The notes under the pieces are model-generated. The model ran no database searches. It was not told the DNA's origin and saw only the letters and a program-made list of their open reading frames with translations. 48,911 nt of DNA, taken from contig JAYSRZ010000083.1 of assembly GCA_043720775.1 (NCBI GenBank), forward strand, positions 1 through 48,911. The letters are read 5' to 3'. This document shows positions 1 to 37,989 of the stretch, piece after piece. This stretch comes from Variovorax sp. Lineage in GTDB: Bacteria > Pseudomonadota > Gammaproteobacteria > Burkholderiales > Burkholderiaceae_C. The position numbers were made by a program, and so were the translations under genes. How positions within the stretch are numbered: position 1 is the stretch's first letter; each line of letters begins with the position of its first letter.

Positions 1-44
1 TGCGCAGATTCTATGCCGGCTATCGGCCTATTTGACATATAAAA
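1..44 (+). repeat. 64-bp degenerate motif, copy 1 (partial; inside aldolase CDS, antisense)
   Basis: gcgc-agattctatg-ccggctatc-ggcc-tattt-gacatataaaa; close to the right part of the 34067-34130 copy. Confidence 0.7.
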
Positions 45-272
45 CATCAATGTGTGCAAAACCATCTGTGCATGCGCCAACTCTTGCCCCACAGGCGCAC
101 CATCTTCGCAATCCAGAGTCACATCCATGACGCAAGAGCCGAACTCTTCGATGAGCTCAGCTTGCAGAGCCAGGGACTTTTTCATGCGGGCTTCCACGCC
201 GCAGTAATGATCAACCACAGGCAGCTGGAACGCAGCTGCAGATGAGCCGAGGAGTACTTCGCGGGGATGCAT
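1..272 (-). CDS. HpcH/HpaI aldolase / citrate lyase beta-like protein (5' part, runs off window start)
   Basis: Manual translation from ATG at 272: MHPREVLLGSSAAAFQLPVVDHYCGVEARMKKSLALQAELIEEFGSCVMDVTLDCEDGAPVG. DCEDG motif; this family is usually next to mdh in Burkholderiales. Not in the ORF track because it is truncated. Confidence 0.8.
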   Translation of the reverse strand, partial: MHPREVLLGSSAAAFQLPVVDHYCGVEARMKKSLALQAELIEEFGSCVMDVTLDCEDGAPVGQELAHAQMVLHTLMFYMSNRPIAGIESA

Positions 273-296
273 TTGATTTGAGAGAAGTAATTTAAC

Positions 297-418
297 GAGC
301 CGTAGCGAGCGGGTGTCAGGCTAGGCGCGGAGGGCTTCATAAACCGCAGCGTACCGAAGAGTACGTGAGGATTTATGTAGGCATCCGCAACGACGCATCA
401 CACCCGCGCAGTAGGCTT
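297..418. repeat. ~120-bp imperfect palindromic intergenic element (ERIC/REP-like)
   Basis: Ends gagccgtagcgagcgggtgt / acacccgcgcagtaggctt are imperfect inverted repeats; central hairpin cataaacc..gcgtac-cgaaga-gtacgt..gatttatg. Confidence 0.55.
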
Positions 419-1403
419 AGACAAGATGAGCCACGCCAGCTTGCTCGTCGGTCAGCTCTTTCAGCGTCAAGTTGATGCGCTCTTGGCTGAATGCGTCAAT
501 GGCCAAACCTTCAAAAATCTTGTATTCGCCGCCTTCGCAGGTCACGGGGAAGCCAAACATCACGTCTTTTGGAATGCCGTATTCGCCATTCGATGGGATG
601 CCCATCGTGACCCATTTGCCGTTCGTGCCCAGCGCCCAATCGCGCATGTGGTCAATCGCTGCATTGGCGGCCGATGCTGCGGAAGACAAACCGCGCGCTG
701 CAATGATGGCTGCGCCGCGCTTGCCCACGGTTGGCAAGAAGGTGTCTGCATTCCACACTTGATCGTTGATCATGTCTTTCACCGATGCACCGCCGATGGT
801 GGCAAAACGATAGTCGGCATACATCGTGGGCGAGTGGTTGCCCCACACGCAGAGTTTTTGAATGTCGCCCACGGCTTTGCTGGTTTTGGCAGCGATTTGC
901 GAGGCGGCGCGGTTGTGATCGAGGCGCAGCATGGCGGTGAAATTCTTGCGTGGCAAATCGGGGGCGCTCTTCATGGCGATGTAGGCATTGGTGTTGGCGG
1001 GGTTGCCCACCACGAGCACGCGCACGTTGCGTGAAGCAACTGCGTTCAGCGCCTTGCCTTGTGCGGTGAAGATCGCACCGTTGATCGACAAGAGTTCTGC
1101 GCGCTCCATGCCAGGGCCGCGCGGGCGTGAGCCTACGAGCAGGGCGTAATCCGTGTCTTTGAACGCGGTCATCGGGTCAGAATGCGCTTCCATGCCCACG
1201 AGCAAGGGGAAGGCGCAATCTTCTAATTCCATCATCACGCCCTTGAGTGCGTTTTGTGCTTTCTCATCAGGGATTTCAAGCAATTGCAAAATCACAGGCT
1301 GATCTTTGCCCAGCATTTCGCCAGAGGCGATACGAAACAACAGGGCATAGCCAATTTGGCCAGCAGCGCCGGTGACGGCTACGCGAACGGGTTTCTTGCT
1401 CAT
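417..1403 (-). CDS. mdh: Malate dehydrogenase
   Basis: [29 protein letters not shown] and WGNHS motifs; 328 aa. Confidence 0.98.
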
Positions 1404-1551: not shown

Positions 1552-1558
1552 TAAACTA

Positions 1559-2350
1559 GTGAAAATTCAAGGATCTCCGCAAGCCATGGCTATTTCCCCG
1601 GACGCATACGATGCGCCCACCCTCGCACCGCTTTTCACCCCGCTATACAGCCAGATCAAAACTCTGATCTTGCAGAGCTTGCAGGCGGGCGAGTGGAAAC
1701 CGGGCGAGGCGATTCCAAGTGAAATGGATTTGGCGGCGAGATACCGCGTTAGCCAAGGCACGGTGCGCAAAGCTGTTGATGAACTAGCCGCTGAAAACTT
1801 GGTCAACCGTCGCCAAGGCAAAGGCACGTTTGTGGCCACGCATGAAGAACAGCAAGTGCAGTTTCGCTTTTTGAAGCTCGTGCCTGATGATGGCAAGCCT
1901 GGCAGTGAAGGCCCAGCAGAGCGAGAGATTTTAGAATGCAAAAAGACGCGAGCCGCGGCTGAGATCGCCAAGCTGCTTGGCATGCGCACGAGTGACGCAG
2001 TATTGCAAATCCGCCGCGTGCTCGGCTTCAAAGGAGTACCCACGATTTTGGAAGATATCTGGCTTCCCGCCGCAGCGTTCAAAGGATTAACGGCAGAGCA
2101 TTTGGCTCTCTACCCCGGCCCTTCGTATGCGCTGTTTGAGACCGAATACAACATCCGCATGCTCAGAGCTGACGAAAAAATTCGCGCTTTGTCGGCATCA
2201 ATAGAGCAAAGCTTGCTATTAAAAGTGAAGCAAGACACGCCCTTGCTCTTCGTCGAGCGCGTGGCCTTTACCTACCGCGACACCCCGATGGAGCTGCGGC
2301 GTGGCTACTACCGCACCGATACGCACCACTATTTCAACACGCTGAATTAG
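1559..2350 (+). CDS. GntR/HutC-family regulator (wHTH + UTRA), SdhR-like; start may be slightly downstream
   Basis: PLYSQIK..IPSEMDLAARYRVSQGTVRKA..QGKGTFV; UTRA C-terminus; divergent from mdh. Confidence 0.92.
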   Translation: MKIQGSPQAMAISPDAYDAPTLAPLFTPLYSQIKTLILQSLQAGEWKPGEAIPSEMDLAARYRVSQGTVRKAVDELAAENLVNRRQGKGTFVATHEEQQVQFRFLKLVPDDGKPGSEGPAEREILECKKTRAAAEIAKLLGMRTSDAVLQIRRVLGFKGVPTILEDIWLPAAAFKGLTAEHLALYPGPSYALFETEYNIRMLRADEKIRALSASIEQSLLLKVKQDTPLLFVERVAFTYRDTPMELRRGYYRTDTHHYFNTLN

Positions 2351-2959: not shown

Positions 2960-4231
2960 CTAGAGGCGCAAATGAGCACGTCTTTGAGTCGCTAAATTGC
3001 CCTCTAGTCTTTCGGCTAAGCTACTGTAGTCTGCTCGGCTCACACCGCAACTTTGAAAGTGTTTTTGCCAACCATTGACGACGTTGACTACGCGCACGAC
3101 TTGTGCATTAGCCTCAAGCGCAGTCAAGCCGAAAAGTAGACATTGGCTCATCGCGTTATCCAAGCTGGATTCGTTTCCTTCCAAACCCACGCCGAATTCT
3201 TGCCGACCTTGGCCTGAATTGGTAGGCAACACGTCGTAAGCTGGAGACAGGCGCAAGCGGCCAAAGCGGGTGGGCTCGGTGACCAAGAGAGCATGGTTTT
3301 TCTCATGATCATCAGTGTTGTCGATCAAGATGTTGAACACCATGCGTCGAAACAGCTCATGCATGTCTTGTTGATTGATCCCATCTTTCGATATGCCGGC
3401 GCGGCGCAGCAATTGCGCGAGCGCGGGGTAGCTCAAGTCGGCCGTTTGAGCATCGGCTGATTCTGCATAAAGCGCCGTACCAGCCGAGATGCAATGAATG
3501 CGCTGGCCTCCTGCACGATCAAAGCGTTTGACGAGCAGCGCATGCTCGCCCGAGAGGCGCAGTGCCCTAGTCTCAGCCACGCGAATGCCGGCTTTTGCAG
3601 CTAAAGTCATTGCGGCATGCTCAATCAAGGGCACATCAATCGGCTCGCCATTGAAAAACTTGATCACCCATTGCTCACCATCGATCTCAATCAAGGCCTT
3701 GGGCTTAGCGCCGCCAAAGCTGCCACCTGCTAAGATCATTTGCTGCTCTAGCGCAGTGATGGGCTCTTTTGCGCTGATTTTGGCTGCCACTTCACTCAGA
3801 GCTTGTGCATCGGCTAATCGCGGTAGTGGGCTACGTGGGCGAGGGGCGTATTCTTCGCTGGAGGTGGATACGCCTAAAGCACCAAAGCGATCATCGCCCG
3901 CGTAATACAAATACTCCATGAGCGAGAGGCGAGGCGGCTTGTCAATGAACTGAATCACGCGCTCGCCCCAGCGATCGGGCCGCGCATCGTCTATCGCGCC
4001 TGCAGCCAAGCCTCTGCCTCGCGGAAAATGCTCGGCATCGATCAATGGCAAATCTTCGCTCAGTGGGAAGCCTTGCGCTAGCCATCTCGGCGCATAACGA
4101 AGAGATACGCCTTTGCCTACGGCCATGAACTGCAAATCGCCCACGAGCCGGGGGGATAAAGGATCGCCCAGAAACCATAGGCTGAGCGCATCGAATGGCG
4201 CAAGCAAGGGCTTGGGCTTGGGTGTGTTCAC
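2960..4231 (-). CDS. hipA: HipA-family toxin kinase
   Basis: GGAKPKA, KRFDR, DNTDDHEKN and LSPAYD motifs; N-terminal coupling domain (PDRWGERVI). Confidence 0.93.
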   Translation of the reverse strand: MNTPKPKPLLAPFDALSLWFLGDPLSPRLVGDLQFMAVGKGVSLRYAPRWLAQGFPLSEDLPLIDAEHFPRGRGLAAGAIDDARPDRWGERVIQFIDKPPRLSLMEYLYYAGDDRFGALGVSTSSEEYAPRPRSPLPRLADAQALSEVAAKISAKEPITALEQQMILAGGSFGGAKPKALIEIDGEQWVIKFFNGEPIDVPLIEHAAMTLAAKAGIRVAETRALRLSGEHALLVKRFDRAGGQRIHCISAGTALYAESADAQTADLSYPALAQLLRRAGISKDGINQQDMHELFRRMVFNILIDNTDDHEKNHALLVTEPTRFGRLRLSPAYDVLPTNSGQGRQEFGVGLEGNESSLDNAMSQCLLFGLTALEANAQVVRVVNVVNGWQKHFQSCGVSRADYSSLAERLEGNLATQRRAHLRL

Positions 4232-4608
4232 GGTGCGTTGCTCGATTTCGCTTGGCTGCGTGCGAGCTTAGAAGCTGCTGAGGCTTGCGCACGCCCTTTG
4301 CCCAGTTGCACGGCAGCTCTTACATCCAGCTCCAAAGCACCCCGATCATGCTCAGGCGCGGCCAACTCAGTCAGCGCCGCACTGCGCCCTATGAGCCAAA
4401 GCGCGGTGGTATACAAGCCGATGCCTACGCCTGCTTCGCCCGCTTCCATGCGCATGAGCGTAGGCACCGATGTGCCAATACGTGCTGCCCACGAGGCTAA
4501 TGATTCTTTGCGCCGCAGCCGCGCCACTGCCAAGTCTGCGCCTAGCTTGCGCAGGCCAGCGGCTGCGGCGGGAGGCATGTGGGATAGCGCAGCAGGAGAC
4601 TTTGGCAT
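4228..4608 (-). CDS. XRE/HTH antitoxin partner of HipA
   Basis: LAVARLRRKESLASWAARIGTSVPTLMRMEAG HTH; 4-nt overlap with hipA; ATG at 4608 chosen. Confidence 0.85.
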   Translation of the reverse strand: MPKSPAALSHMPPAAAAGLRKLGADLAVARLRRKESLASWAARIGTSVPTLMRMEAGEAGVGIGLYTTALWLIGRSAALTELAAPEHDRGALELDVRAAVQLGKGRAQASAASKLARSQAKSSNAP

Positions 4609-6444: not shown

Positions 6445-8876
6445 TGAATGCTCCAACAACACTCAAGCAGTTGATGCCTGCCGCTACCGAAGGGGCTTCC
6501 ACAAGCCCGCAAGCAGAGCAGGGCACAAACCTCATTCACGAATCCGCACATCTGCACGTCACGGGCGCTGCGGTTTACACCGACGATATCCCCGAGCTGC
6601 GCGGCACGCTGTATGCAGCGATCATCATGTCGCCGGTCGCGCATGGCGAGTTGATTGGCGACGGCATTGATCGCGAAGCGATTCTCTCGATGCACGGCGT
6701 GGTTGCGGTCTATACCGCCAAAGACATTCCCGGTGAAAACAATTGCGGCCCGATCGTTCATGATGATCCGTTTCTCGCTGCAGGCAAGGTTGAATTCCTC
6801 GGGCAAGCAGTGGCGGTGGTCGTGGCCAAGGACATGCTCTACGCGCGCGAAGCCGCCAATCATGCCAAAGTGCTTGTGAAAGAGCTGCCTGCGATTCTCA
6901 CGATTGAAGAAGCGCTTGAAGCGCAATCCTTCCTTATGCCGGCCAAGGGAATTACGCGCGGCAAACCGGCCGAGGCCATTGCCGCCGCGCCCCACAAATT
7001 GAGCGGGTCAACATATTGCGGCCAGCAAGAGCAGTTTTATCTCGAAGGCCAGATCACGTATGCCGTGCCGCGTGAAGATGATCAGCTCACGCTTTATGTT
7101 TCAACGCAACACCCCGATGGCAATCAGCGCGAAGCCGCTGCCGCGCTGAACTTGACGACCAAAGACGTAGAAGTCATCTGCCGGCGCATGGGCGGCGGCT
7201 TCGGCGGCAAAGAAGGCAATGCCTCGATCTTCTCGCAATCCGCCGCGCTTGCTGCACACAAATTGCAAAAGCCCATCAAGCTGCGCGTCAACCGCGATGA
7301 CGACATGATGATCACTGGCAAGCGCCATGATTTTCGCCATGATTACACCGTGGGCTTTGACGATGAAGGCCGCATCTTAGGCGTCGATTTCATGCTCGCA
7401 TCGCGCTGCGGATACAGCATGGATTACTCCGGCCCGGTGAACAACCGCGCTGTCTTGCACATTGATAATTGCTACTACCTGCCGAACCTTAATATCATCA
7501 GCCACCGCTGCAAAACCAATACGCAAAGCGCCACTGCTTTCCGTGGCTTCGGCGGGCCGCAGGGCATGTTTGGCATTGAAACGGTGATTGAAGAAATTGC
7601 GCAGACGCTGGGTAAAGATGCGCTCGATGTGCGCAAAATCAATCTTTATCAAGAGCCTGCTGCCTCTGGCAACGCGGAGAGCATGACCACCCAATACGGC
7701 CAGAAGATTGAAGATTGGGTCGGCGATAAGCTGATCGCGCAAGTGGAGGCCGAATCTAAATACCGCGAGCGCCGCATAGCCGTCAACGCATTCAACGCAG
7801 CCAACAAAACCCGCAAGCGCGGCGTCGCCCTCGTGCCCCTCAAATTCGGCATCAGCTTCACAGCCACCATGCTCAACCAAGGCGGCGCGCTGCTCAATAT
7901 TTACATGGATGGCTCGGTGAGCGTCAACCATGGTGGCACGGAAATGGGGCAGGGCTTAAACACGAAGATGCAGCAAGTCTGCGCTGATGGCTTGGGCATA
8001 TCCACAAGCTTCGTGCGAGTCACCGCCGCGGATACACAGAAAGTGCCCAACGCTTCTGCCACCTCCGCATCGAGCGGCGCAGATATCAATGGCGCAGCAA
8101 TCATGAATGCTTGCGATCAAATGCGCGCACGCCTCGCTCCTGTGGCCGCGCGTATGTTGCAATGCGAGCCCAATGCTATTAAATTCATAGCTGGTCACGC
8201 AGTATCCACGGGCGGAAATGGCCAAAATGATCATGAAAAATCTGTGGAATGGACGAAGGTCATCAAGCAAGCATGGCTAGACCGCGTGGGGCTCTCAGTC
8301 GCCGGCTTTTACATGACGCCCGAGATCGCCTATGACTTCGAGACGCTGCAAGGTAAAGCGTTTTACTACTTCTGCTACGGCGCAGCAGTCAGCGAAGTAG
8401 AGATCGACACGCGCACCGGCGAGCTCTGGCTCAGAGCCGTAGACATCGTGCACGACGCCGGCCAAAGCATCAACCCAGCGATCGACATCGGCCAAATCGA
8501 AGGCGCGTACATCCAAGGCATGGGCTGGCTCACGATGGAAGAATGCGTGTGGGATTTGAAGGGCAAGAAAACAGCCGATGGCTTCAGCGGACGCGGAAAA
8601 TTCCTAACCCACGGCCCCAGCACCTACAAAATCCCCGTAGCCAGCGATGTGCCCGAGCATTTCAACGTGAAGCTGTTCGACAACCAAAACCTAAAGCCCA
8701 CGCCCTTCCGCAGCAAAGCCGTCGGCGAGCCACCGCTCATGCTCGCTCTATCGAGCTACTTCGCAGTGCGCGATGCGGTCAGCGCCAGCGCAGATCACAA
8801 AAAGCGAGTTGCCTTCAAAGCCCCGGCCACGCCAGAGCGCATTTTGATGGCTTGTGAGGCGTTAAAAGCGGCGTAA
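6444..8876 (+). CDS. xdhB: Xanthine dehydrogenase molybdopterin subunit
   Basis: HESAHLHVTG, RMGGGFGGKE, AFRGFGGPQG, GTEMGQGL, SKAVGEPP; ATG overlaps the xdhA stop. Confidence 0.96.
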   Translation: MNAPTTLKQLMPAATEGASTSPQAEQGTNLIHESAHLHVTGAAVYTDDIPELRGTLYAAIIMSPVAHGELIGDGIDREAILSMHGVVAVYTAKDIPGENNCGPIVHDDPFLAAGKVEFLGQAVAVVVAKDMLYAREAANHAKVLVKELPAILTIEEALEAQSFLMPAKGITRGKPAEAIAAAPHKLSGSTYCGQQEQFYLEGQITYAVPREDDQLTLYVSTQHPDGNQREAAAALNLTTKDVEVICRRMGGGFGGKEGNASIFSQSAALAAHKLQKPIKLRVNRDDDMMITGKRHDFRHDYTVGFDDEGRILGVDFMLASRCGYSMDYSGPVNNRAVLHIDNCYYLPNLNIISHRCKTNTQSATAFRGFGGPQGMFGIETVIEEIAQTLGKDALDVRKINLYQEPAASGNAESMTTQYGQKIEDWVGDKLIAQVEAESKYRERRIAVNAFNAANKTRKRGVALVPLKFGISFTATMLNQGGALLNIYMDGSVSVNHGGTEMGQGLNTKMQQVCADGLGISTSFVRVTAADTQKVPNASATSASSGADINGAAIMNACDQMRARLAPVAARMLQCEPNAIKFIAGHAVSTGGNGQNDHEKSVEWTKVIKQAWLDRVGLSVAGFYMTPEIAYDFETLQGKAFYYFCYGAAVSEVEIDTRTGELWLRAVDIVHDAGQSINPAIDIGQIEGAYIQGMGWLTMEECVWDLKGKKTADGFSGRGKFLTHGPSTYKIPVASDVPEHFNVKLFDNQNLKPTPFRSKAVGEPPLMLALSSYFAVRDAVSASADHKKRVAFKAPATPERILMACEALKAA
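8175..8240 (+). repeat. 64-bp motif, copy 2 (in xdhB; encodes AIKFIAGHAVSTGGNGQNDHEK)
   Basis: gctattaaattcatagc-tggtc-acgc-agtatccacg-ggcggaaat-ggcc-aaaat-gatcatgaaaaa. Confidence 0.85.
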
Positions 8877-8932: not shown

Positions 8933-9394
8933 ATGAAGAATTCGCCCGAAATCGTGTTGGACACCAATGTGCTGGTCAGTGCCTTGCGCAGCAGCTTGGG
9001 GCCTTCGTTTGCATTGGTGCAAGCTGTACGGGATCAGCAAATCACTTTGCGCTGCAGTCCAGCTTTGTTTTTGGAATACGAAGATGTTCTCAATCGTGCG
9101 GAGCAGTTGAGCAGCTTCGGATTAAGCGCTGCGGATATTGAAGTGGTGTTGGCTGATCTGGCAACGTATGTCAAGCCGGTCATCACCCATTATCAATGGC
9201 GGCCTCAATTGCGCGATCCTTCCGATGAGATGGTGTTGGAGGCAGCAGTCAACGCTCCGGGCTCAGTCATCGTCACCTACAACCTGCGTGACTTTTCACC
9301 CGCAGCGAACTTTGGCATCAAGGTTTTTAATCCCGAGCAAACTTTTCGCTATTTTTCTTTTTCCCGGCCCACACTGAAAGGAAATCCACTATGA
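8933..9394 (+). CDS. PIN-domain toxin
   Basis: IVLDTNVLVSALRS, LRDPSDEMVLEAA, IVTYNLRDF. Confidence 0.92.
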   Translation: MKNSPEIVLDTNVLVSALRSSLGPSFALVQAVRDQQITLRCSPALFLEYEDVLNRAEQLSSFGLSAADIEVVLADLATYVKPVITHYQWRPQLRDPSDEMVLEAAVNAPGSVIVTYNLRDFSPAANFGIKVFNPEQTFRYFSFSRPTLKGNPL

Positions 9395-12293: not shown

Positions 12294-12332
12294 CATTACG
12301 AGGCGGATGGAGATGGTTAGCGCATGGTTTTT

Positions 12333-12396
12333 ACTATTAAATTAGTAGCACTTAGCGCATTAAATACAACAGCTATCTGCTACTTTGGCTTAAAAA
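12333..12396 (+). repeat. 64-bp motif, copy 3 (intergenic)
   Basis: actattaaattagtagc-actta-gcgc-attaaataca-acagctatc-tgct-acttt-ggcttaaaaa. Confidence 0.75.
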
Positions 12397-15585: not shown

Positions 15586-15900
15586 ATGCGTACCAGTATA
15601 GACTTTCCTGACCCTTTGTTTCGGACCCTGAAGGCCAGCGCGGCTATGCAGGGCATGAGCTTGCGTGATCATGTGTTGGCTTTGATTGAGCGGGGGATGC
15701 AGCAGAGTGCCATGCCAGTTAAACGTGTGCCCCGGCCTGTCTCAGACCCTCCGATGCTGGGGCCAGAGTACGAGCTGAGTGTTCATCCGGATCGCCTGCG
15801 GGGTGGCGGAGCGCAGCAATTGCTGGATGAACTGGATTTAGAGGCCTATTTGAATGTCGTGAAATATGGCAGCTCTTCGGGCGAGACTAGGCCGCTATGA
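15586..15900 (+). CDS. VapB-like RHH antitoxin
   Basis: MRTSIDFPDPLFRTLKASAAMQGMSLRDHVLALIERG; overlaps the PIN gene. Confidence 0.85.
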   Translation: MRTSIDFPDPLFRTLKASAAMQGMSLRDHVLALIERGMQQSAMPVKRVPRPVSDPPMLGPEYELSVHPDRLRGGGAQQLLDELDLEAYLNVVKYGSSSGETRPL

Positions 15901-21836: not shown

Positions 21837-21843
21837 GACGATG

Positions 21844-21907
21844 ACTATCAAAAAGTGAGCGCTCCACGCAGGTTCTGTATGGCCTAAATGCGAAAAATGT
21901 TTAAAAA
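21844..21907 (+). repeat. 64-bp motif, copy 6 (intergenic)
   Basis: actatcaaaaagtgagc-gctcc-acgc-aggttctgta-tggcctaaa-tgcg-aaaaa-tgtttaaaaa. Confidence 0.7.
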
Positions 21908-26976: not shown

Positions 26977-26982
26977 GGACAG

Positions 26983-27017
26983 AAAAAAGCCCTGAGTCTT
27001 TTGCGAATCAGGGCTTT
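26983..27017. terminator. Bidirectional intrinsic terminator (duplicated at 23809-23843)
   Basis: aaaaaagccctga-gtcttttgcgaa-tcagggctttt. Confidence 0.75.
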
Positions 27018-27024
27018 TAAACAT

Positions 27025-27100
27025 TGGTGCCGGAAAGATGAATCGAACACCCGACCTTCTCATTACGAATGAGCTGCTCTACCGACTGAGCTACACCGGC
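27025..27100 (-). tRNA. tRNA-Thr (CGT)
   Basis: GCCGGTGTAGCTCAGTCGGTAGAGCAGCTCATTCGTAATGAGAAGGTCGGGTGTTCGATTCATCTTTCCGGCACCA; 76-nt cloverleaf, encoded CCA. Confidence 0.96.
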
Positions 27101-28359: not shown

Positions 28360-31101
28360 CTAAGCTGCCAATGCCCGCGAGACGACTTCGCGCACGTCGT
28401 TGCTCAAGTCACTTTTCGCTGCCACGCGCTCAATCGCATGTTTGGCAGCATCTTGATACGGCTGTGCGAGCTTCTTCCAGCGATCTAAAGCGCGGGCTAG
28501 GCGGGCTGCTACTTGGGGGTTGATGGCATCGAGTGCGAGCACTTGATCGGCCCAATACACGTAGCCGGCTGCATCAGCTCGGTGGAAAGCGGCTGGGTTG
28601 GCGCTGCAATAGCTGAAGATGAGGCTGCGGGCGCGGTTGGGGTTCTTCAAATTGAAATCGGCATGCTGCATCAGAGCGCGCACCTGCGGCAAGATGTTGC
28701 CACTCCGATCTGGGCTGCCCGCTTGCAGGGCAAACCATTTGTCGATCACCAGCGCTTCCTGTTTAAACATTGCGTGGAATTTAGCCAGCGCGGGCTCTGC
28801 GTGTGGGCTGCCGCTAGCGACCAGCGCAGACAAAGCGCCGAAGCGGTCTGTCATGTTGCTGCTCTCTTTGAAGCGCTGATAGGCTTTGCCATGCCAAACT
28901 TCGCGCGCTTGATCTTGTGAGCCTAAGCAAAGCATGGAGAGCGCAAGATTGGCTAGAGAGCGGCGGCCAGAGCTAGTCGCATCTGGCGAATAAGCGCCGG
29001 TGTCTTTGTTGGCCTCCAACGCGGCTGCCCAATCGTCGTGTAGCGCAACAGCCAAAGCTTGGCGCATGCCTTCGCGCACAGCATGAATGGATTGCGGATC
29101 AACCACGTCGAGTTGCTCTGCGATGTACGTCTCAGCGGGCAGAGTCAGGACGAGCTCTTTGAAAGCTGCATCGAGCGATGCATCGCGAAGCACATGGCGC
29201 AGAGCGGCTACATAGCGTGATGAGGCAAACAGTTTTGCATCAAATAGGCCTTCGTCGCTCGTAGATACTGCGTGAAGCGCTACTGAATTAATAGCGTTTT
29301 GCTTCAACGCAGAGAGCGCAGCTTGCATCGCCAATCGCTGTGCAGCCTCCCAGCGGTTGAAAGAATCGCTGTCGTGCGCGAGCAGCGAAAGGAGTTGATC
29401 TTCGCTGTAGTCGAATTCTAAAATCACCGGCGCTGAGAAGCCGCGAAAGAGCGAGGGCACGGGCTCAGCTGTGATGCCAATAAACTGCAAAACCTCCTGC
29501 GCCTGCGTGAGCACGATGGTGCGCGCGCTTTGCACGGCTTGCTCCTCGTGCGCGAGCTGGAGTGGCATGTCGTGGCCTGTGGCTGGGTTCACCAAACCGA
29601 GCGCCAGCGGGAGCACGAAGGGCTCTTTGCCGGGTTGGCCGGGTGTGGCGGGGCAGCTTTGCGAGAGGCTGAGCGTGTAGGTCTGCTTCGCCGCGTCATA
29701 CACGCCATGCGCTTTCACGCGCGGCGTGCCAGCTTGGCTATACCAGCGAAGAAATTGCGGCAGCAGCGTTTGCAGCGCAGAGCCAGGGTTGGCGGCTGCA
29801 ATGGCGTTGGCAAAATCATCGCAAGTTACAGCCTGGCCATCGTGCCGCTTGAAATACTCGGCCATGCCTTTGGCAAACCCCGTGCGGCCCACCAAGCTTT
29901 GCATCATGCGCACGACTTCTGCGCCTTTTTCGTAAATCGTGACGGTGTAGAAATTGTTGATCTCTGCGTATTGATCGGGGCGCACAGGATGCGCCATCGG
30001 GCCCGCATCTTCGGGAAACTGGGCTTGGCGCAATACGCGTACATCTTCAATGCGCTTCACAGCTCTGGCCGAGGGGTTGGGGCAAAGGTCTTGAGAAAAT
30101 TCTTGATCGCGGAAAACAGTGAGGCCTTCCTTCAAAGATAGCTGAAACCAATCGCGGCAAGTGATGCGGTTGCCTGTCCAATTGTGAAAATACTCGTGGC
30201 CGACGACGCTTTCAATGTTCGCGTAATCCACATCCGTGGCAGTCGCTGGGTTGGCCAACACATACTTTGTGTTGAAAATATTGAGGCCTTTGTTTTCCAT
30301 CGCGCCCATGTTGAAATCGCTCGTGGCGACGATCATGAAGCGCTCTAAATCGAGCGGCAAATTGAAGCGAGCTTCATCCCATGCGACGGAGGCCATGAGC
30401 GAATTCATGGCGTGCTCGGTTTTGTCGAGATCGCCTGCTCTGACGAAGACTTGCAGCAAATGATCTGTGCCGGAGCGAGACGTGATGCGCTGCTCTCTGG
30501 CGACGAGTTTGCCAGCGACTAATGCGAAAAGATAGCAAGGCTTCTTGTGCGGATCGATCCATTTGGCGAAATGTTTGCCCTCTGGTAGATCGCCGCTTTC
30601 TACTAAATTGCCATTGGAGAGCAAGACGGGGTAGAGCGCTTTATCTGCTCGCAGCGTGACGCTGTAAGAAGACATCACATCGGGGCGATCTAGGAAATAC
30701 GTGATGCGCCGAAAGCCTTCGGCTTCGCATTGCGTGAAAAATGTGTCTTGGCTTACATAAAGGCCGGAGAGCGATGTGTTCTTACTTGGATTGCAAGTCG
30801 TGAAAATCTCTAAATCGCACTCTGCAGGTAGACCATCGAGCACCAGCGTTTCGCCATCCATTTTGAAGGAGCAGCCCGCGCCATTCACGAGCACGCGAGC
30901 GAGATTGAGCTCTACGCCGTCTAAGCGAAGCGGCGCGTCTTGCGCGGCATCTGGATTGCGGCGAATATGCATTTTGCTGAGCACACGCGTTTTCGCGGGA
31001 TCGAGATCAAACGTGAGATCCACGGTGTCGATCCAAAAGGGTGGCGGCGCGTAGTCTTCGCGGCGAATCACGGTGGGGGTGGCTGAGCCTTCTTTAAACA
31101 T
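28360..31101 (-). CDS. pepN: Aminopeptidase N (M1)
   Basis: GAMENKG, HEYFHNWTGNR..LKEG; start MFKEG at 31101. Confidence 0.97.
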   Translation of the reverse strand: MFKEGSATPTVIRREDYAPPPFWIDTVDLTFDLDPAKTRVLSKMHIRRNPDAAQDAPLRLDGVELNLARVLVNGAGCSFKMDGETLVLDGLPAECDLEIFTTCNPSKNTSLSGLYVSQDTFFTQCEAEGFRRITYFLDRPDVMSSYSVTLRADKALYPVLLSNGNLVESGDLPEGKHFAKWIDPHKKPCYLFALVAGKLVAREQRITSRSGTDHLLQVFVRAGDLDKTEHAMNSLMASVAWDEARFNLPLDLERFMIVATSDFNMGAMENKGLNIFNTKYVLANPATATDVDYANIESVVGHEYFHNWTGNRITCRDWFQLSLKEGLTVFRDQEFSQDLCPNPSARAVKRIEDVRVLRQAQFPEDAGPMAHPVRPDQYAEINNFYTVTIYEKGAEVVRMMQSLVGRTGFAKGMAEYFKRHDGQAVTCDDFANAIAAANPGSALQTLLPQFLRWYSQAGTPRVKAHGVYDAAKQTYTLSLSQSCPATPGQPGKEPFVLPLALGLVNPATGHDMPLQLAHEEQAVQSARTIVLTQAQEVLQFIGITAEPVPSLFRGFSAPVILEFDYSEDQLLSLLAHDSDSFNRWEAAQRLAMQAALSALKQNAINSVALHAVSTSDEGLFDAKLFASSRYVAALRHVLRDASLDAAFKELVLTLPAETYIAEQLDVVDPQSIHAVREGMRQALAVALHDDWAAALEANKDTGAYSPDATSSGRRSLANLALSMLCLGSQDQAREVWHGKAYQRFKESSNMTDRFGALSALVASGSPHAEPALAKFHAMFKQEALVIDKWFALQAGSPDRSGNILPQVRALMQHADFNLKNPNRARSLIFSYCSANPAAFHRADAAGYVYWADQVLALDAINPQVAARLARALDRWKKLAQPYQDAAKHAIERVAAKSDLSNDVREVVSRALAA
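29232..29295 (-). repeat. 64-bp motif, copy 7 (in pepN; AINSVALHAVSTSDEGLFDAK)
   Basis: gctattaattcagtagc-gcttc-acgc-agtatctacg-agcgacgaa-ggcc-tattt-gatgcaaaa. Confidence 0.88.
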
Positions 31102-31121: not shown

Positions 31122-31814
31122 TCAACTTTTTAGGGCAGCGATGTGCAGACTTTGCAAAAAGTCCTGCGCCATCAATTCTTCGTAATCCTTTGCGCTCGCA
31201 ATCACATGATCGCCAGCCAATTCTTGTGCGGAATGCGTGCTGCAAATTGCCACAGCCCGCATGCCGGCGCACCGCGCCGCTTCAATGCCCAGCGGCGCAT
31301 CTTCAAAGACAATTGCGTGCTTAGCCAGCGTAGATACTGCGCGAGCCGCTTCCAAAAAGATAGCAGGCTCGGGCTTGCCCGGCAGCCCCATATCGCCGCG
31401 AATAATTGCCTGCGGGTTCTGCTGCATCTTCAAATGAGACAACGCAAACTCCACATTATGGATATCGCCCGCTGTGCCCACGGCAATCTTCAAACCCAGC
31501 GCCCGAGCTTGCGCTTCAAACGCTTTAAATCCACGCACCTCCGTAAAAATCGGCGCAAACAGCTCCCGGTAAATCTGCTCTTTCTCCTCCACCAGCGGCA
31601 GGGCCTCAGCAGGCGTCATCGCGCGGCCAAACAACTCCCCCATGCATTCCGTGCCCGTGCGCCCGGTGGTGCGCCGCATGAGCTCCGCCAAATCCATCTT
31701 CACGCCATGCCGATGCGCAAACACCTCCCACGAACGCGCGTGAGAAGGCATCGAATCAATCATGGTGCCATCCATGTCGAAGATCAGGGCTTGGGTGAGG
31801 TGAGGTTTTTGCAC
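31122..31814 (-). CDS. HAD-family phosphatase (beta-PGM/CbbY-like)
   Basis: IFDMDGTMIDS, GKPEPAIF, VFEDAPLG. Confidence 0.92.
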   Translation of the reverse strand: MQKPHLTQALIFDMDGTMIDSMPSHARSWEVFAHRHGVKMDLAELMRRTTGRTGTECMGELFGRAMTPAEALPLVEEKEQIYRELFAPIFTEVRGFKAFEAQARALGLKIAVGTAGDIHNVEFALSHLKMQQNPQAIIRGDMGLPGKPEPAIFLEAARAVSTLAKHAIVFEDAPLGIEAARCAGMRAVAICSTHSAQELAGDHVIASAKDYEELMAQDFLQSLHIAALKS

Positions 31815-34066: not shown

Positions 34067-34130
34067 TTTTAAGTAAAAAATGGTCTGTAGCCGGCATGGA
34101 ATCTGCGCAAAGCGCTATCTTATTAGGAGT
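34067..34130 (-). repeat. 64-bp motif, copy 9 (fills the whole bug-P450 intergenic gap)
   Basis: actcctaataagatagc-gcttt-gcgc-agattccatg-ccggctaca-gacc-atttt-ttacttaaaa. Confidence 0.8.
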
Positions 34131-35131
34131 CAGTCAGCCTTGACTCTGCCTGATGTCATCACGGGTTTCCAACGTGCAATTTCGCTAGAAATCAATTGGC
34201 CATAAGCCTCGGGCGTGGTGGGCGTGGCAATCGCGCCTTCGCTGCTGAGGCGCGTTTTCATGGCTTCTGAATTGAGCGATGCGTTGATCTGGGAGTTGAG
34301 CTTCATCACCACATCGCGTGGCGTTCCTGCGGGCGCAACGACGCCGTACCATTGATCGGCCTCAAAGCCTTTGATGCCCAGCGTCTCGTTCACGGTGGGT
34401 AGATCCGGCAGGGCATCCATGCGCTTTCCCGAGGAGACGGCCAGTGCCCGCAGTGCGCCCGACTTGATGTGGGCGAGCAAAGCGGGCGCGCCGGTGAACA
34501 TGAATTGAATTTGCCCGGCCAGCAGATCGTTCACCGCAGGCGCTGTGCCGCGATAGGGGATATGAACAATTGACGTGCCGGTTTGCATCTTGAAATACTC
34601 AGTGGCGAGATTGGCGGCGCTGCCATTGCCGCCTGAGCCGTAATTCAATTTTCCAGGATTGGCCTTGAGATAGGTAACGAGATCTTTCAAATTCTTCACC
34701 GGCACGCTCGGATGCACCACGAGCACATTGGGCACGCGAGCGACCCAAGCTACAGGAGCGAAGTCTTTGATCGGGTCATACGGCAGCTTCGGATACAGCG
34801 AAGGGTTGACAGCGAGTGTGCCGATATGGCCCATCATCAGCGTGTAGCCATCGGGCGCGGCCTTGGCAGCGCGCTCCGCGCCGATGCTGCCACCCGCGCC
34901 GGCCACGTTTTCAATCACCACGCTTTGATTCCAAGCTTTCGTGAGCTCTATGCCGATGGCGCGCGCCAATATATCCGTCGTGCCGCCCGGTGTGAAGGGC
35001 ACGATCATGCGAATGGGTTTGCTGGGATAGGCCACTGCAGCAGGCGTTTGCGCTGCGGTATTTAAGGAAAAAAGGCCGATAGCGACCGCCAATACTGCGT
35101 GAAGCGCTATGAATTTAATAGTTTGATGCAT
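34130..35131 (-). CDS. Bug/TctC tripartite tricarboxylate transporter substrate-binding protein
   Basis: YPSKPIRMIVPFTPGGTTDILAR, ENVAGAGG, HIPYRG; start MHQT at 35131. Confidence 0.95.
   Translation of the reverse strand: MHQTIKFIALHAVLAVAIGLFSLNTAAQTPAAVAYPSKPIRMIVPFTPGGTTDILARAIGIELTKAWNQSVVIENVAGAGGSIGAERAAKAAPDGYTLMMGHIGTLAVNPSLYPKLPYDPIKDFAPVAWVARVPNVLVVHPSVPVKNLKDLVTYLKANPGKLNYGSGGNGSAANLATEYFKMQTGTSIVHIPYRGTAPAVNDLLAGQIQFMFTGAPALLAHIKSGALRALAVSSGKRMDALPDLPTVNETLGIKGFEADQWYGVVAPAGTPRDVVMKLNSQINASLNSEAMKTRLSSEGAIATPTTPEAYGQLISSEIARWKPVMTSGRVKAD
35059..35122 (-). repeat. 64-bp motif, copy 10 (encodes the Bug signal-peptide core TIKFIALHAVLAVAIGLFSLN)
   Basis: actattaaattcatagc-gcttc-acgc-agtattggcg-gtcgctatc-ggcc-ttttt-tccttaaata. 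Confidence 0.85.
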
Positions 35132-35138
35132 GATGACT

Positions 35139-36071
35139 TTAAGCAGCTGTGACGAACAAGGGCGTTGCCAAACGGCTGATGAGATCGAGCATGGCGCGCT
35201 GCGTGAGTGTGCTGGGGCGCTGAGCACTTGTGGCAATCGATAGTCGGGAAAGCAAGCCGTCGATCTGCGTGATCTCAAAGCGCTCTGCTGCTTGCATATT
35301 CGCCACCGCGCTTTGCGGCAGCACTGCGCAGCCCGCGCCATCGGCCACCAGTTCGAGAATAGAAGACACGCCATCAATCTCCAAAGCAATCGTGGGGCGC
35401 AGGCCGAGATCGCCCAGGCGCGTCTCCACCAAATTGCGAATCGCGTTGGGTTTCGTGGGGATCACTAATTGGAGATCTGCAATTTCAGCAAGAGAGATTT
35501 TTACGTGCTTTTCTTTTCTCGCTGCGTTGGCACTGCGTGGCGGTTTTGCCGTCTTTGAAATCGGTTTGACGAGATACAGCGCCTCTTCTAAAAGCGGCGC
35601 AAGCTCGATCTCCGGCGTTGGCATGGCGTTGTACAGCAGGGCGATATCAAGCCGACCATTGGCCAAAGCCTCCTGCATCGCGACTGACAAGCCTTCTTGA
35701 ATCGCAATGGTGGCCTGCGGCAATTGCTTCCTGAATTCGCGCACCAGCGGCACAGCCAACATTCGCGCCACGCTGGTGGGCATGCCCACAGCCACGCGGC
35801 CCGACAAGCCGCCACGCACTTTGCCCAAATCTTCTTTTGCCCGCTCCACCTGATGCAAAATCCCCCTCCCGCGCTCCAGCATCAGCTTGCCGGCCTCGGT
35901 CGGCACAGCGCCTCGCCCGTTGCGCGTGAGCAAATTCTGACGCAGCTCCACCTCAAGCAAACGCACTTGGCGCGAAAGCGCAGGCTGGGCAATGCGCAGC
36001 TGCTGGGCGGCGCGCGTGAAGCTGCCCAGCTCAGCCACGCGCACGAAGTATTCAAGTTGGCGTAAATCCAT
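35139..36071 (-). CDS. LysR-family regulator (likely regulator of the lig cluster)
   Basis: MDLRQLEYFVRVAELGSFTRAA..QPALSRQVRLLE; divergent from the lig operon. Confidence 0.95.
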   Translation of the reverse strand: MDLRQLEYFVRVAELGSFTRAAQQLRIAQPALSRQVRLLEVELRQNLLTRNGRGAVPTEAGKLMLERGRGILHQVERAKEDLGKVRGGLSGRVAVGMPTSVARMLAVPLVREFRKQLPQATIAIQEGLSVAMQEALANGRLDIALLYNAMPTPEIELAPLLEEALYLVKPISKTAKPPRSANAARKEKHVKISLAEIADLQLVIPTKPNAIRNLVETRLGDLGLRPTIALEIDGVSSILELVADGAGCAVLPQSAVANMQAAERFEITQIDGLLSRLSIATSAQRPSTLTQRAMLDLISRLATPLFVTAA

Positions 36072-36243
36072 ACTCTCAAGAATGCCTGTGAATAACCATT
36101 TTTGGCATGGGGGAACTACTGATATTGAGATTTTGGATAACTGCTAGCCTCTGATCATCTTCGTACAAAGCCGCAAAACTGAAAAAATGCGAAGACAAAA
36201 ACAAATCACTTTATTCACTCTTTTTGACCCTTGGAGACAAACC

Positions 36244-37287
36244 ATGAACGCTTCAACCCAGATGAACAAACGCCAGCTTCTGAAAGCCGGCGCAGCAGCC
36301 ACAGCGCTCGCCGCAACCGGCCAATCGCTCGCCCAAGTCGGGCCCTTGCGCTTTCATCAAATGCTGCCCGCGCAGGCCGTGATTCCCTCTAAAGCAATTG
36401 CGCCGTGGATCGCTAAAGTTGAAAAAGAATCCGGCGGCCGCTTGAAGATTCAGCAGTTCAATGCGATGGCTTTGGGCGGCACGCCGCCTCAGCTTTTTGA
36501 TCAAGCTAGAGATGGCGTGGCCGACATCACATGGACCGTGCTCGGCTACACGGCTGGCCGCTTCAACCGCTGCGAAGTGTTTGAGTTGCCTTTTATGACT
36601 TCAGGCGCAGAGAGCGGCTCGCGCGCTTTCCAAGAATACGTTGAGAAAAACGCGATGGAAGAATTTAAAGATGTGAAGCTGATTTGCGTTCACACGCACG
36701 GTGCAGGCCTGTTTCACACCAAAGAGCCGGTGACGAATATGGAGGATCTGCGCGGCATGAAAATTCGCGGCGGCTCGCGCGTGATCTCCAATATGCTCAC
36801 CAAATTAGGCGCTACGCCAGTGGGCATGCCTGTGCCTGCAGTCACAGATGCACTCTCCAAAGGCACGATCCAAGGCACGACGATTCCTTGGGAAGTCACG
36901 CCTGCGCTCAAAGTCACCGAGCTCGTGAAAAACCACACCACCTTCGCTGGCAAGCAAGGGCTTTACACGCAAACTTTCGCTGTCTCGATGAACAAAGCGG
37001 CGTATGAGAAGCTGCCGGCCGATTTGAAGAAGGTGATCGACGACAACTCAGGTATGGCCGCAGCCACCATGTTTGGCAAAGCGATGGATGAAGGCGATGC
37101 GATTGGCTTGGGCATCGCACGCGCAGCCGGAAACCGCATCATTGCGCTTGATATCGCCGAGACGCAACGCTGGAAGCGCACTGCTGGCACGGTAGAGACG
37201 GATTGGATCAAAGAGATGCAGGGCAAAGGCATTGATGGCGCGAAGCTGATTGCTGAGGCGCGCAGCTTGATTGCGAAATACGCTTAA
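36244..37287 (+). CDS. TRAP transporter substrate-binding protein DctP (no dctQM in window)
   Basis: Tat-like leader NKRQLLK; FELPF, DLRGMKIR, GATPVGMP, LPADLK. Confidence 0.9.
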   Translation: MNASTQMNKRQLLKAGAAATALAATGQSLAQVGPLRFHQMLPAQAVIPSKAIAPWIAKVEKESGGRLKIQQFNAMALGGTPPQLFDQARDGVADITWTVLGYTAGRFNRCEVFELPFMTSGAESGSRAFQEYVEKNAMEEFKDVKLICVHTHGAGLFHTKEPVTNMEDLRGMKIRGGSRVISNMLTKLGATPVGMPVPAVTDALSKGTIQGTTIPWEVTPALKVTELVKNHTTFAGKQGLYTQTFAVSMNKAAYEKLPADLKKVIDDNSGMAAATMFGKAMDEGDAIGLGIARAAGNRIIALDIAETQRWKRTAGTVETDWIKEMQGKGIDGAKLIAEARSLIAKYA

Positions 37288-37290
37288 ACG

Positions 37291-37989
37291 ATGAGCATCA
37301 CACTCAAAGGCATTTCCTCTATGGCCACGCGGGCTCTTTTGAAAGAGCTCTGCGCGGTCTATGAAAAAGCGCATGGCGTTTCGGTTCACATCGAAGCTAC
37401 TGGTGGCGTGGATGCGGCAAAAAGAGTGGCCGCCGGAGAGGCTTTTGATGTGGTGATTTTGGGCAGTGATGCGATTGACAAGTTAATCGCCAGTGGTCAT
37501 TTAGTGCAAGGCAGCCGATTCGATTTGGTGAAATCAGAGATTGCAGTCGCTACGAAAAAAGGAGCGCCTCGCGCAATGATTGCGACGGCTAATGCGCTAA
37601 AAGCTTCATTAATCGCTGCAAAAAGTATCAGCTATTCCACCGGCCCCAGCGGTGTCTATCTTGCAAGCCTGTTTGAAAAATTGGGCATCGCCGAGCAGCT
37701 CAAAACCAAAACAGTAGTGCCCCCGCCGGGCATCCCCGTGGGCAACTTGGTAGCACGAGGTGAAGTAGAAATCGGCTTCCAGCAACTCTCCGAATTGATC
37801 AACATCGAAGGCATCGAAGTGTTAGGCACGCTACCTTTCGAGATCGCCCACATCACGACATTCAGCGCGGGCATTCCCACAAATGCAAGCCCCACTTCTG
37901 CGCAAGCCGTGCGCCAATTCTTGAGCTTTGCAAACTCCGCGCAAGCCACCCCGATCAAACAATCCCAAGGCATGACTCCCGCGAATTAA
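37291..37989 (+). CDS. ModA-fold substrate-binding-like protein without signal peptide
   Basis: MSITLKGISSMAT, GGVDAAKRV..FDVV, YSTGPSG, GFQQLSEL. Confidence 0.8.
   Translation: MSITLKGISSMATRALLKELCAVYEKAHGVSVHIEATGGVDAAKRVAAGEAFDVVILGSDAIDKLIASGHLVQGSRFDLVKSEIAVATKKGAPRAMIATANALKASLIAAKSISYSTGPSGVYLASLFEKLGIAEQLKTKTVVPPPGIPVGNLVARGEVEIGFQQLSELINIEGIEVLGTLPFEIAHITTFSAGIPTNASPTSAQAVRQFLSFANSAQATPIKQSQGMTPAN
37549..37612 (+). repeat. 64-bp motif, copy 11 (in ModA-like gene; ATKKGAPRAMIATANALKASL)
   Basis: gctacgaaaaaaggagc-gcctc-gcgc-aatgattgcg-acggctaat-gcgc-taaaa-gcttcattaa. Confidence 0.7.

Follow-up and report, generated by a model that had tools for sequence, protein, structure and literature searches.

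Why does a long, degenerate DNA motif recur in strictly fixed geometry every few kilobases, inside enzyme genes as well as between them? The question is raised by a 48,911-nt stretch of Variovorax sp. DNA (here called the window), for which the original prediction had listed 11 copies and had proposed either an old in-frame-inserting element or an extended protein-binding site. An uptake-sequence model was absent from these options. Each of the 11 listed copies was confirmed, in an ungapped alignment, and two more were added.

Copies in the window and across the genome

The ten listed full-length copies score 45 to 67 bits in a 66-bp frame. The remaining one (1 to 43, plus strand) is truncated by the contig start; it comprises motif positions 22 to 64, reaches 46 of 56 possible bits and lies antisense within ORF 3-272. 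Copies within genes were found in xdhB (8173 to 8238, plus strand, 54.7 bits), xdhC (16752 to 16817, plus strand, 67.2 bits), the urate oxidase gene puuD, past the N-terminal domain (19725 to 19790, plus strand, 65.3 bits), pepN (29232 to 29297, minus strand, 62.7 bits), a cytochrome P450 gene (33161 to 33226, minus strand, 62.9 bits) and a ModA-like gene (37547 to 37612, plus strand, 44.8 bits), and another overlaps the start region of bug (TctC; 35059 to 35124, minus strand, 67.0 bits). The frames of the host genes are open, and xdhB, xdhC, puuD, pepN, P450, TctC/bug and the ModA-like gene fit their families as had been stated, whereas the "aldolase" label of ORF 3-272 found no match in an NCBIfam scan. 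One copy is intergenic (12331 to 12396, plus strand, 65.7 bits), one fills the spacer between an HAD gene and an FAD-oxidase gene (21842 to 21907, plus strand, 52.3 bits), and one takes up all of the DNA between the stop codon of bug and the start codon of the P450 gene (34067 to 34132, minus strand, 60.3 bits). The two copies that had been overlooked lie in an HAD hydrolase gene (31301 to 31366, minus strand, 49.8 bits) and in the gene for N-formylglutamate amidohydrolase (FGase; 48242 to 48307, plus strand, 31.4 bits). A probable decayed copy, antisense in gntR (2168 to 2233, minus strand), scored 9.1 bits, which is under the threshold; it retains the dyad and has lost the remainder.

A matrix trained on ten window copies located 897 sites at a threshold of at least 20 bits in the 2.97-Mb genome, or one per 3.3 kb, and few sites (34) at 10 to 20 bits. 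The same scan gave no matches in any bin from 10 to 70 bits when the genome was reversed or triplet-shuffled, so the comparison with shuffled sequence came out in favor of a real motif. The original prediction's mention of similar sequences in Comamonadaceae was also correct. The claim of strict spacing held genome-wide, and the internal length is locked: the right half stood at offset 0 for 785 of the 795 left halves having one (98 further left halves had no scoring right half), and where a dyad accompanied a right half it stood at offset 0 in 784 of 784 cases (16 right halves had no dyad). Base-specific boxes at positions 2 to 4, 15 to 17, and 24 to 27 alternate with A/T tracts. The A- or T-tracts are phased at 10.5 to 11 bp, and this helical phasing continues weakly past the motif core. 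Positions 52 and 53 read AA or TT, seldom AT or TA, in 788 of 875 copies, and their state is the same in 94 to 96% of congener pairs.

Covariation in the 875-copy alignment was only local, within the A- or T-tracts. A hairpin signal was absent, as the dyad pairs showed no excess complementarity and long-range corrected MI did not exceed 0.036. The single Rfam match within the window was a tRNA. A structured RNA, for which a covariation check had been suggested, is therefore not indicated. The flanks are unconserved (information of at most 0.17 bits) and show no terminal inverted repeat (TIR), target-site duplication (TSD) or terminal pairing signal, in agreement with the first description.

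Placement and the case for an in-cell binder

According to CDS calls from our own ORF model, 379 of the 897 copies (42%) lie inside predicted coding sequences, 189 sense and 190 antisense, and thus have no orientation to the gene. Neighboring copies were on the same strand in 274 cases and on opposite strands in 246, and copy strand was unlinked to contig GC skew. In a complete genome, both strands were used along 2.9 Mb among the first 100 of 141 matches listed. A strand bias relative to replichore or gene, proposed as a check, was not detected in these comparisons. KOPS and Chi are likewise asymmetric, dispersed and partly in genes, but they are oriented by replichore; strands here were mixed along 2 Mb, without polarity of this type.

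The copies avoid one another at distances below 300 bp (2 of 242 versus 21 expected; 8 of 520 versus 66 to 86 expected). They favor convergent gene ends (77 versus 46 expected) and avoid divergent spacers (36 versus 70 expected), and 123 of 365 sites lie within 10 bp of a stop codon. Density was lowest in the most codon-optimized class of genes, with 29 copies per Mb compared to 105 to 261 in the other classes. The longest motif-free gaps reach 24.9 kb.

Phasing that extends beyond the core, the AA/TT rule and its stability among congeners, mutual exclusion, the enrichment at convergent ends with depletion between divergent genes, and the use of both strands along the complete genome would all suit a cytoplasmic chromosome-organizing or topology protein that wraps about six helical turns at intervals of a few kilobases. 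Its sites would be kept by ordinary selection and lost with the protein's gene. We regard this as a serious possibility but on balance a doubtful one, given that the candidate proteins do not track the motif (see below), that density is lowest in highly expressed genes, that 55 bits of motif information far exceed the 12.7 bits required to locate 897 sites, and that an organizer using hundreds of sites would have had to disappear repeatedly, leaving no trace (0 matches at 8 bits or more in 1.6 Mb of the relative G168). In strong gyrase sites (Mu SGS, pSC101 par, BIME-2), too, a helically phased arm follows a dyad, and these sites are enriched where transcription converges. Unlike them, the motif has near-invariant bases and is totally lost in relatives with indistinguishable GyrA C-terminal domains.

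The most invariant positions, T3 (99%) and A15 (100%), are 11 bases apart within the interrupted dyad and form a T-N11-A dyad. Such a dyad with further sub-sites constitutes the LysR box. The motif could accordingly be the operator of a global LysR-type regulator, with sub-sites about two turns apart, and a footprint of 60 to 70 bp would match its length. The depletion in divergent spacers, the crowding at 3′ ends, and some 900 sites that are 42% intragenic and show no orientation to the gene make this the least probable of the readings that we weighed.

Sites written over working genes and inherited

Several window copies showed how host proteins accommodate the motif. In XdhB, the copy encodes residues 567 to 588; its left part overwrites a conserved stretch, and its right part falls within a loop expanded by 8 residues (alignment to PDB 1JRO_B). 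The xdhC copy falls in an interdomain linker, and the protein exceeds its profile by about 18 residues (TIGR02964 covers 263 residues versus 245 positions). The pepN copy lies in a variable loop that is about 15 to 20 residues longer than in motif-free orthologues. The copy in the HAD hydrolase gene encodes residues 150 to 171 of the conserved core with length unchanged (TIGR01509 positions 110 to 153 match residues 146 to 189), and the ModA-like copy overwrites conserved sequence, ungapped against the G018 and G168 orthologues. Compared to a motif-free relative, a comparison that cannot separate gain from loss, 32 of 109 in-gene sites add zero length (30 without any gap), 60 add at least 4 residues, and 9 add 19 to 25 residues. 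The motif is thus written over working genes and not inserted as a fixed block.

The sites are also inherited. A total of 128 of 134 were retained in a congener, with no empty-site deletion allele among the 134, and 31 of 57 were common to other genera. The pepN site scored at least 15 bits at 11 of 12 congener pepN loci and 12.6 bits at the remaining one, and the P450 site recurs at offset 0 in a Polaromonas-labelled locus (L064). Four-fold sites under high-information positions were identical in 147 of 149 cases, compared to 2603 of 5226 (50%) in the flanks, while amino acid identity was lower at the motif (1053 of 1691, 62%) than in the flanks (10219 of 11942, 86%). Since silent sites are conserved under the motif, it is the DNA itself on which selection or drive operates. 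At inherited sites, position 18 was T in 23 of 27 other-genus copies and A or G in 27 of 27 here, and position 19 was G in 24 of 27 other-genus copies and C in 25 of 27 here. Inherited sites have thus been retuned in parallel, giving lineage dialects.

These data bear on the inserting element of the original prediction. Rickettsia RPE sequences lie in frame inside unrelated housekeeping genes, as the motif does here (PMC10969869). A domesticated or decaying relic of an ancient in-frame-inserting element (RPE, MITE or REP type) would account for the sites that add residues, including the 9 longest additions and the extended pepN loop, for the scarcity of intermediate sites, and for the high information, which is natural for a copied unit. 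However, 875 of 875 cores were unique, with a median nearest-neighbor identity of 0.76 and 2 having a neighbor at least 90% identical. Further points against such a relic are the lack of TIR, TSD and flank signals, the absence of empty-site deletions among the congener sites, the 30 ungapped sites in conserved enzymes, and a silent-site conservation that rules out neutral decay. In contrast to RPE and MITEs, the motif shows no fixed added length, hairpin covariation or young identical copies. We conclude that it is not an inserting element because all copies differ, sites persist in congeners and cross genera, and nearly a third of those compared add no length; a relic appears improbable, and insertion as the general origin is largely refuted.

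REP/BIME sequences resemble the motif in being abundant, family-restricted and often near 3′ ends or between convergent genes. Unlike these, the motif is 42% intragenic, shows no base-pair covariation, is not clustered and does not flank a RAYT gene: the sole RAYT gene of the genome (at C236) has another inverted repeat, of 31 bp, on its flanks, and the nearest motif is about 1 kb off. Searching the main text of PMC3733652 by term returned no Comamonadaceae name.

Parts of the motif have been recorded before. Table 7 of Tong et al. 2017 (PMC5217627) gives ATAGCT(N)22CAAAAG for Polaromonas naphthalenivorans CJ2 and GCTTAT(N)5AAGCG for Acidovorax ebreus TPSY, and the paper reports 114 to 125 copies, many between convergent genes. 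ATAGCT-N22 falls in register at motif position 13 in 68 of 122 copies from named genera, and is followed by a relaxed second half, C.A.AG, in 34; GCTTAT-N5-AAGCG is in register at position 25 in 3. As presented there, these are two unrelated short pairs from single genomes, mostly intergenic and with no function given, and the main text contains no 66-bp unit, family survey or evolutionary analysis.

Candidate readers and the uptake-tag reading

Silent-site conservation, locked geometry, phasing, local-only covariation and spacing exclusion uphold the proposal of an extended protein-read site that is kept despite recoding. The motif is a length-locked, lineage-tuned DNA signal, likely recognized in a bent double-stranded form by a protein complex. 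Carriers are interleaved with relatives from which it is wholly absent, even within one genus (366 matches in G291, 0 in G160).

None of the candidate readers (ComEC, ComP-like pilin, ComEA-like proteins, GyrA C-terminal domain, H-NS, RdgC, RAYT) tracked the motif. ComEC matched in 42 of 42 motif-bearing and 30 of 32 motif-poor genomes (in three pieces in the motif-rich G020), a ComP_DUS-family pilin, scored for presence only, in 31 of 32 motif-rich and 21 of 24 motif-free genomes, and short HHH_3 proteins in 16 of 24 of each. Among motif-rich versus motif-free genomes, H-NS was found in 16 versus 17 of 20, RdgC in 14 versus 13 of 20, and a coiled-coil HTH protein in 8 versus 4 of 20. No diagnostic column or indel separated the GyrA C-terminal domains of 11 motif-rich genomes from those of 10 motif-free ones. 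The nucleoid organizer and topoisomerase named as possible readers were thus not borne out by H-NS or the GyrA C-terminal domain.

A complex reading the motif would, to judge from the genomic pattern, most likely be DNA-uptake machinery. Uptake sequences of Pasteurellaceae (USS) and Neisseriaceae (DUS) are likewise dispersed in hundreds of copies, of which a third to two-thirds lie in genes; they combine a specific core with A/T tracts, phased in the USS (PMC3458573), and have lineage variants. They favor poorly conserved genes and residues (Findlay and Redfield, PMC2817400) and are conserved at the DNA level above their flanks (comparison in PMC2397512). The motif similarly occupies permissive positions of core genes: proteins at least 80% identical to a motif-free homologue carry 34 copies per Mb, compared to 359 per Mb at 45 to 60% identity. 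USS and DUS are scarce in recently acquired DNA; the motif occurs twice in a 39-kb contig bearing phage-like genes and has 0 copies in a 20-kb low-GC block of G014, but its density correlated with GC at just 0.18 over 93 contigs. The motif differs from USS and DUS in having 66 bp and 55 bits of unrelated sequence (core of 9 to 10 or 9 to 12 bp, 31 bp with tracts, in USS/DUS), in opening with a pseudo-dyad, in lacking inverted terminator pairs, and in density (about one per kb in USS/DUS).

We therefore favor, tentatively and at not far short of even probability, an uptake-sequence-like tag accumulated by molecular drive in the manner of the uptake sequences of Haemophilus and Neisseria, a model that accounts for the genomic pattern no less well than the options first proposed. 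The large coding share, the scarcity in codon-optimized genes, formation in place without added length, and ComEC matches in all 42 motif-bearing genomes also accord with it. The reader would recognize the boxes and the bendable tracts. Fragments with a better motif would be taken up and recombined more often, and motif-improving alleles would displace weaker ones where protein function allows. A second site on one fragment would contribute little, leading to exclusion; a shift in receptor specificity would retune every site, producing dialects; and once uptake bias was lost, sites would erode. Drive would produce the excess of information over that required, and repeated total loss in interleaved relatives would fit a dispensable drive better than an essential organizer.

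Some observations stand against the uptake tag. The motif has roughly double the length of the 31-bp USS and no sequence in common with USS or DUS, and competence genes do not set carriers apart from motif-poor genomes. Stepwise birth predicts sites of intermediate strength, yet these are few. An in-cell binder would account equally well for the bias toward convergent ends and away from divergent spacers. A literature search (including passages of PMC10257627) turned up no report demonstrating that Comamonadaceae are naturally competent.

The excess information, dispersal with local exclusion, dialects, rarity in viral contigs (one match in each of 22) and a patchy presence resembling that of defense systems would also suit a hard-to-forge self mark by which a defense or surveillance system tells the chromosome from incoming DNA. 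The tolerated gaps and near-empty 39-kb contig, together with the lack of linkage to any defense gene, leave this a slim prospect. More broadly, the motif may be a second code over Comamonadaceae genes, a 66-bp six-turn wrapping signal read in the cell by a candidate organizer or self/foreign-marker complex, with hundreds of conserved enzymes rewritten in place, sites co-retuned, and the signal vanishing when its reader is lost; we consider this whole picture plausible, though somewhat short of even probability.

Sequence-specific DNA uptake has been described for two bacterial families only, according to the accounts in PMC7811141 and PMC2817400. An uptake tag in Comamonadaceae would add a third such system, independent of the others and with a signal of double the length, and would show how a receptor reads six helical turns. 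It would also imply that a family widespread in water and soil is naturally competent, and the tag could be used to transform these bacteria. With a cytoplasmic reader instead, the motif would represent a chromosome-wide positioning code for which we found no close precedent. Under either reading, it offers a case in which the reshaping of hundreds of proteins by a signal at the DNA level can be measured, and for which the carrier and noncarrier relatives (G291 and G160) and the dialects provide ready-made controls.

Occurrence and anatomy of the motif

The 11 window copies listed in the original prediction were all recovered as given and aligned without gaps. A weight matrix seeded with ten of the window copies converged on a 66-bp frame, and scanning with it added two copies (31301-31366, minus strand; 48242-48307, plus strand) and a decayed one (2168-2233, minus strand). 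Across the 2.97-Mb, 610-contig source genome, 897 sites scored at least 20 bits, the majority of them more than 50 bits; intermediate scores were scarce (just 34 sites at 10 to 20 bits). Reversed and triplet-shuffled genomes yielded 0 sites in the 10- to 70-bit bins. The copy at 34067-34132 forms the whole spacer from the bug stop codon to the P450 start codon, and that at 21842-21907 likewise occupies its entire intergenic spacer. No copy was found between 21907 and 29232, around a small integrated element (24830-27100) that comprises a Rep_trans replication initiator and a phage integrase adjoining a tRNA. The 10.6 kb from 37613 to 48241, containing genes for an amidohydrolase, an RraA-like aldolase, a penicillin amidase and a LigAB dioxygenase, were also free of copies. 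Around the xanthine dehydrogenase cluster, what are probably toxin-antitoxin pairs have been inserted: a HipA-like kinase preceded by a small gene (2960-4578) and two PIN-domain genes with small neighbors (8933-9394 and 15897-16436).

Counted from the first R, positions 1 to 17 of the genome-wide matrix read RCTAY-N-AAWW-N-RR-TAGC, a pseudo-dyad corresponding to the left 17-bp pseudo-palindrome first seen in the window. They are followed by R-C-Y-Y-N (18 to 22), RCGCAG (23 to 28), W-W-T (29 to 31), TAYG (33 to 36), GCTA-like (40 to 43), GGCC-like (46 to 49), AWWT (51 to 54) and CTT-AAAA (57 to 64) elements. C2, T3, A15, G16, C17, C24, G25, C26 and A27 are 96 to 100% fixed. The internal spacing proved as strict as predicted, with a half-motif offset of 0 in 785/795 and 784/784 cases, and the length is thus locked. 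A/T dinucleotide maxima recur every 10.5 to 11 bp, with weak ones beyond the core at -8 and 75. The motif carries 55 bits of information in total, where 12.7 bits would suffice to locate 897 sites. The suggested covariation analysis detected coupling of adjacent bases (AA or TT runs); beyond four bases corrected mutual information reached at most 0.036, and complementarity of the dyad partners did not exceed the expectation from base frequencies. Intergenic, sense and antisense copies share an identical profile. This signature points to double-stranded DNA read via base contacts and shape. An RNA or single-strand hairpin was ruled out by Rfam (the sole match in the window was a tRNA), covariation and folding (60 copies had a median z of -1.2 relative to mononucleotide-shuffled controls).

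Distribution and inheritance of sites

A strict 27-bp pattern matched 68 to 350 times in each of 14/14 congeners and 1 to 21 times in 14/58 other genomes of the family. With a looser pattern, matches were obtained in 102 of 250 family genomes, 34 of which held 80 to 877 each; controls gave 0 to 3. Among the 80 loci listed out of 122, drawn from 3 of 64 parts of the sequence collection, named carriers include Acidovorax, Rhodoferax, Polaromonas, Alicycliphilus, Comamonas, Curvibacter, Giesbergeria, Hylemonella and Ottowia. The original prediction's mention of similar sequences in Comamonadaceae was correct: many genera of the family carry the motif, and the strict pattern was found in 0 of 48 genomes from other families. 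Two MAG contigs labeled Undibacterium and Asaia (loci L038 and L070) bear the full motif; the labels probably reflect mislabeling or misbinning, and these would otherwise be the first cases outside the family. Two patterns matched viral contigs only once apiece, in 1 and in 22 contigs, respectively, and a BLAST search of plasmids with one motif copy returned chance matches only.

For most genomes the label "motif-free" reflects one 26-bp pattern; it was rechecked with a looser dyad pattern for relatives G018, G160, G024 and G015, and the matrix was run over 1.6 Mb of the 2.6-Mb G168 genome and 0.29 Mb of the 2.9-Mb G018 genome. Carriers and non-carriers were interleaved in PepN and GyrA trees, in which many forks have low support. 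A single genus spans both states, with 366 matches in G291 and 0 in G160, making them a good pair for tracing the motif reader. The few matches of G160 to the looser dyad pattern look like genuine remnants.

Through both flanks (about 79% identical), 134 of 243 sites of the congener G014 could be anchored in the source genome, where 128 were present, 2 were weak and 4 had no score. Two of the latter are present at contig edges, one was replaced without deletion and one is split by a 12-bp insertion. Across 80 in-gene pairs, which were required to reach 12 bits in the source genome (a small ascertainment), four-fold sites were identical in 147/149 cases under high-information positions versus 2603/5226 in the flanks, and amino acid identity was 62% under the motif versus 86% in the flanks. 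The motif DNA is likely read by something and kept at a cost to the protein. Fifty-seven sites from other named genera, a few of which share a site, were also anchored in the source genome: 10 lay at the identical base, 21 in the same orientation within 48 bp and 1 in the opposite orientation, and 25 had no copy. At 27 shared sites, position 18 was T in 23 of the other-genus copies versus A/G in 27 here, position 19 was G in 24 versus C in 25, and position 28 was mixed versus G in 25, all three positions being left free by the search pattern. The sites are accordingly of old date, passed on by descent and retuned in concert. The motif is real, family restricted, ancient and maintained at the DNA level.

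Placement and accommodation in host genes

According to our own open reading frame model (84% coding), 379 copies lie in genes, 144 across a gene end and 374 between genes. Within genes, 189 copies run sense and 190 antisense, and on each strand a single frame predominates, presumably because the TAG/CTA triplets of the motif force the frame. A first hint of replichore polarity (33 listed G014 matches on a single strand) was an artifact of list order, and later strand tests gave no sign of the bias that had been considered. A dif pattern had no match in three genomes. Copies avoid one another: gaps below 300 bp numbered 2/242 in 800 contiguous kb of G014 (21 expected) and 8/520 in the source genome (66 expected under uniform placement, 86 with genic class kept). 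Intergenic copies were enriched in convergent spacers (77 versus 46 expected) and depleted in divergent ones (36 versus 70), and the distance to a 3' end was less than 10 bp in 123/365. In-gene density reached its minimum in the most conserved and most codon-optimized genes. The 39-kb contig C246 of the source genome, which has genes that we take to be phage-like, carries just 2 copies; no other long contig has so low a density.

The original prediction had considered an element inserting in frame. All 875 flanked cores were unique (nearest-neighbor identity median of 0.76, against 0.71 under independent columns; maximum of 0.92), and their flanks were without signal, in line with the lack of terminal repeats and target duplications noted before. 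Lengths at 109 in-gene sites were compared with orthologues in 1.6 Mb of the motif-free G168 (0 matches of at least 8 bits). Zero residues were added at 32 sites, 1 to 3 at 5, 4 to 8 at 18, 9 to 13 at 15, 14 to 18 at 13, 19 to 25 at 9 and more at 5; the change was -3 to -1 at 9 sites and under -3 at 3. Thirty of the 109 aligned gap free, and G168 DNA at the matching positions scored a median of -69 bits. The ungapped hosts include the ModA-like protein of the window and what we take to be alanyl-tRNA synthetase, DNA ligase, TsaD, CoaBC, HscA and Dxr. The comparison with G018 agreed (zero added residues in 7/25), and motif-bearing versus motif-free comparison by itself is compatible with both gain and loss. 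In the window, the HAD copy encodes conserved core at unchanged length, the XdhB copy overwrote conserved residues and added 8, and the pepN loop is about 15 to 20 residues longer than in motif-free orthologues, with the copy offset by 8 codons relative to two sister genera. Loops appear to have lengthened or taken in the motif, which would have been spelled by substitutions where structure forbade this. With unique cores, signal-free flanks and so many sites adding no residue, an inserted relic is improbable. A RAYT was rejected as mobilizer, the only one in the genome being flanked by a different repeat. That RAYT gene lies on contig C236, and its repeat, 28 bp long and palindromic, recurs in a few other places and as a head-to-head pair at 37984-38039 between the ModA-like and amidohydrolase genes; this is an ordinary REP-RAYT family, separate from the 66-bp motif.

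Candidate readers and processes

ComEC, ComP_DUS pilin and HHH_3/ComEA-like proteins did not track the motif. A ComEC match was missing in only 2/74 genomes (G067 and G124), both of which carry almost no motif (2 and 4 matches). Subtraction against G168 left 1684/3084 proteins without a match, largely because 38% of G168 lay outside the comparison; filtering by synteny left 63 genes, none of them an evident reader, and filtering for basic proteins left 86. PDB searches with the ModA-like and HAD proteins returned no match at strict cutoffs.

Among known processes, uptake-driven accumulation would fit best, and we favor it tentatively. Published uptake sequences occupy permissive parts of core genes, show stronger conservation than their flanks, are lacking in acquired DNA and combine a core with A/T tracts (PMC2817400, PMC2397512, PMC3458573, PMC7811141). 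An uptake drive would also explain why the motif holds more information than needed, why copies exclude one another, why dialects exist and why loss is clean. Counting against it are the double length and the presence of competence genes in carriers and non-carriers alike. The motif resembles uptake sequences in genomic behavior but differs in length and sequence, uptake itself being hypothesized. A self mark, an inserted relic and a LysR-type operator are weaker readings than uptake or a wrapping protein; we regard the self mark as improbable and the operator as slightly more so.

A cytoplasmic wrapping protein is possible, if doubtful: it would fit the helical phasing, the mutual exclusion of copies and the avoidance of divergent spacers, but the GyrA C-terminal domain (CTD), H-NS, RdgC and a coiled-coil HTH protein, tried as readers, did not track the motif. 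The very motif-rich G000 (the source genome), G006, G014 and G285 matched neither the H-NS DNA-binding domain nor RdgC, both of which are present in most relatives; this may reflect common ancestry or functional replacement.

Two short pairs reported by Tong et al. (2017), to which the text assigns no function, lie in register inside the motif, and the main text of PMC3733652 names no Comamonadaceae. The whole 66-bp unit is undescribed in the largely open-access literature searched.
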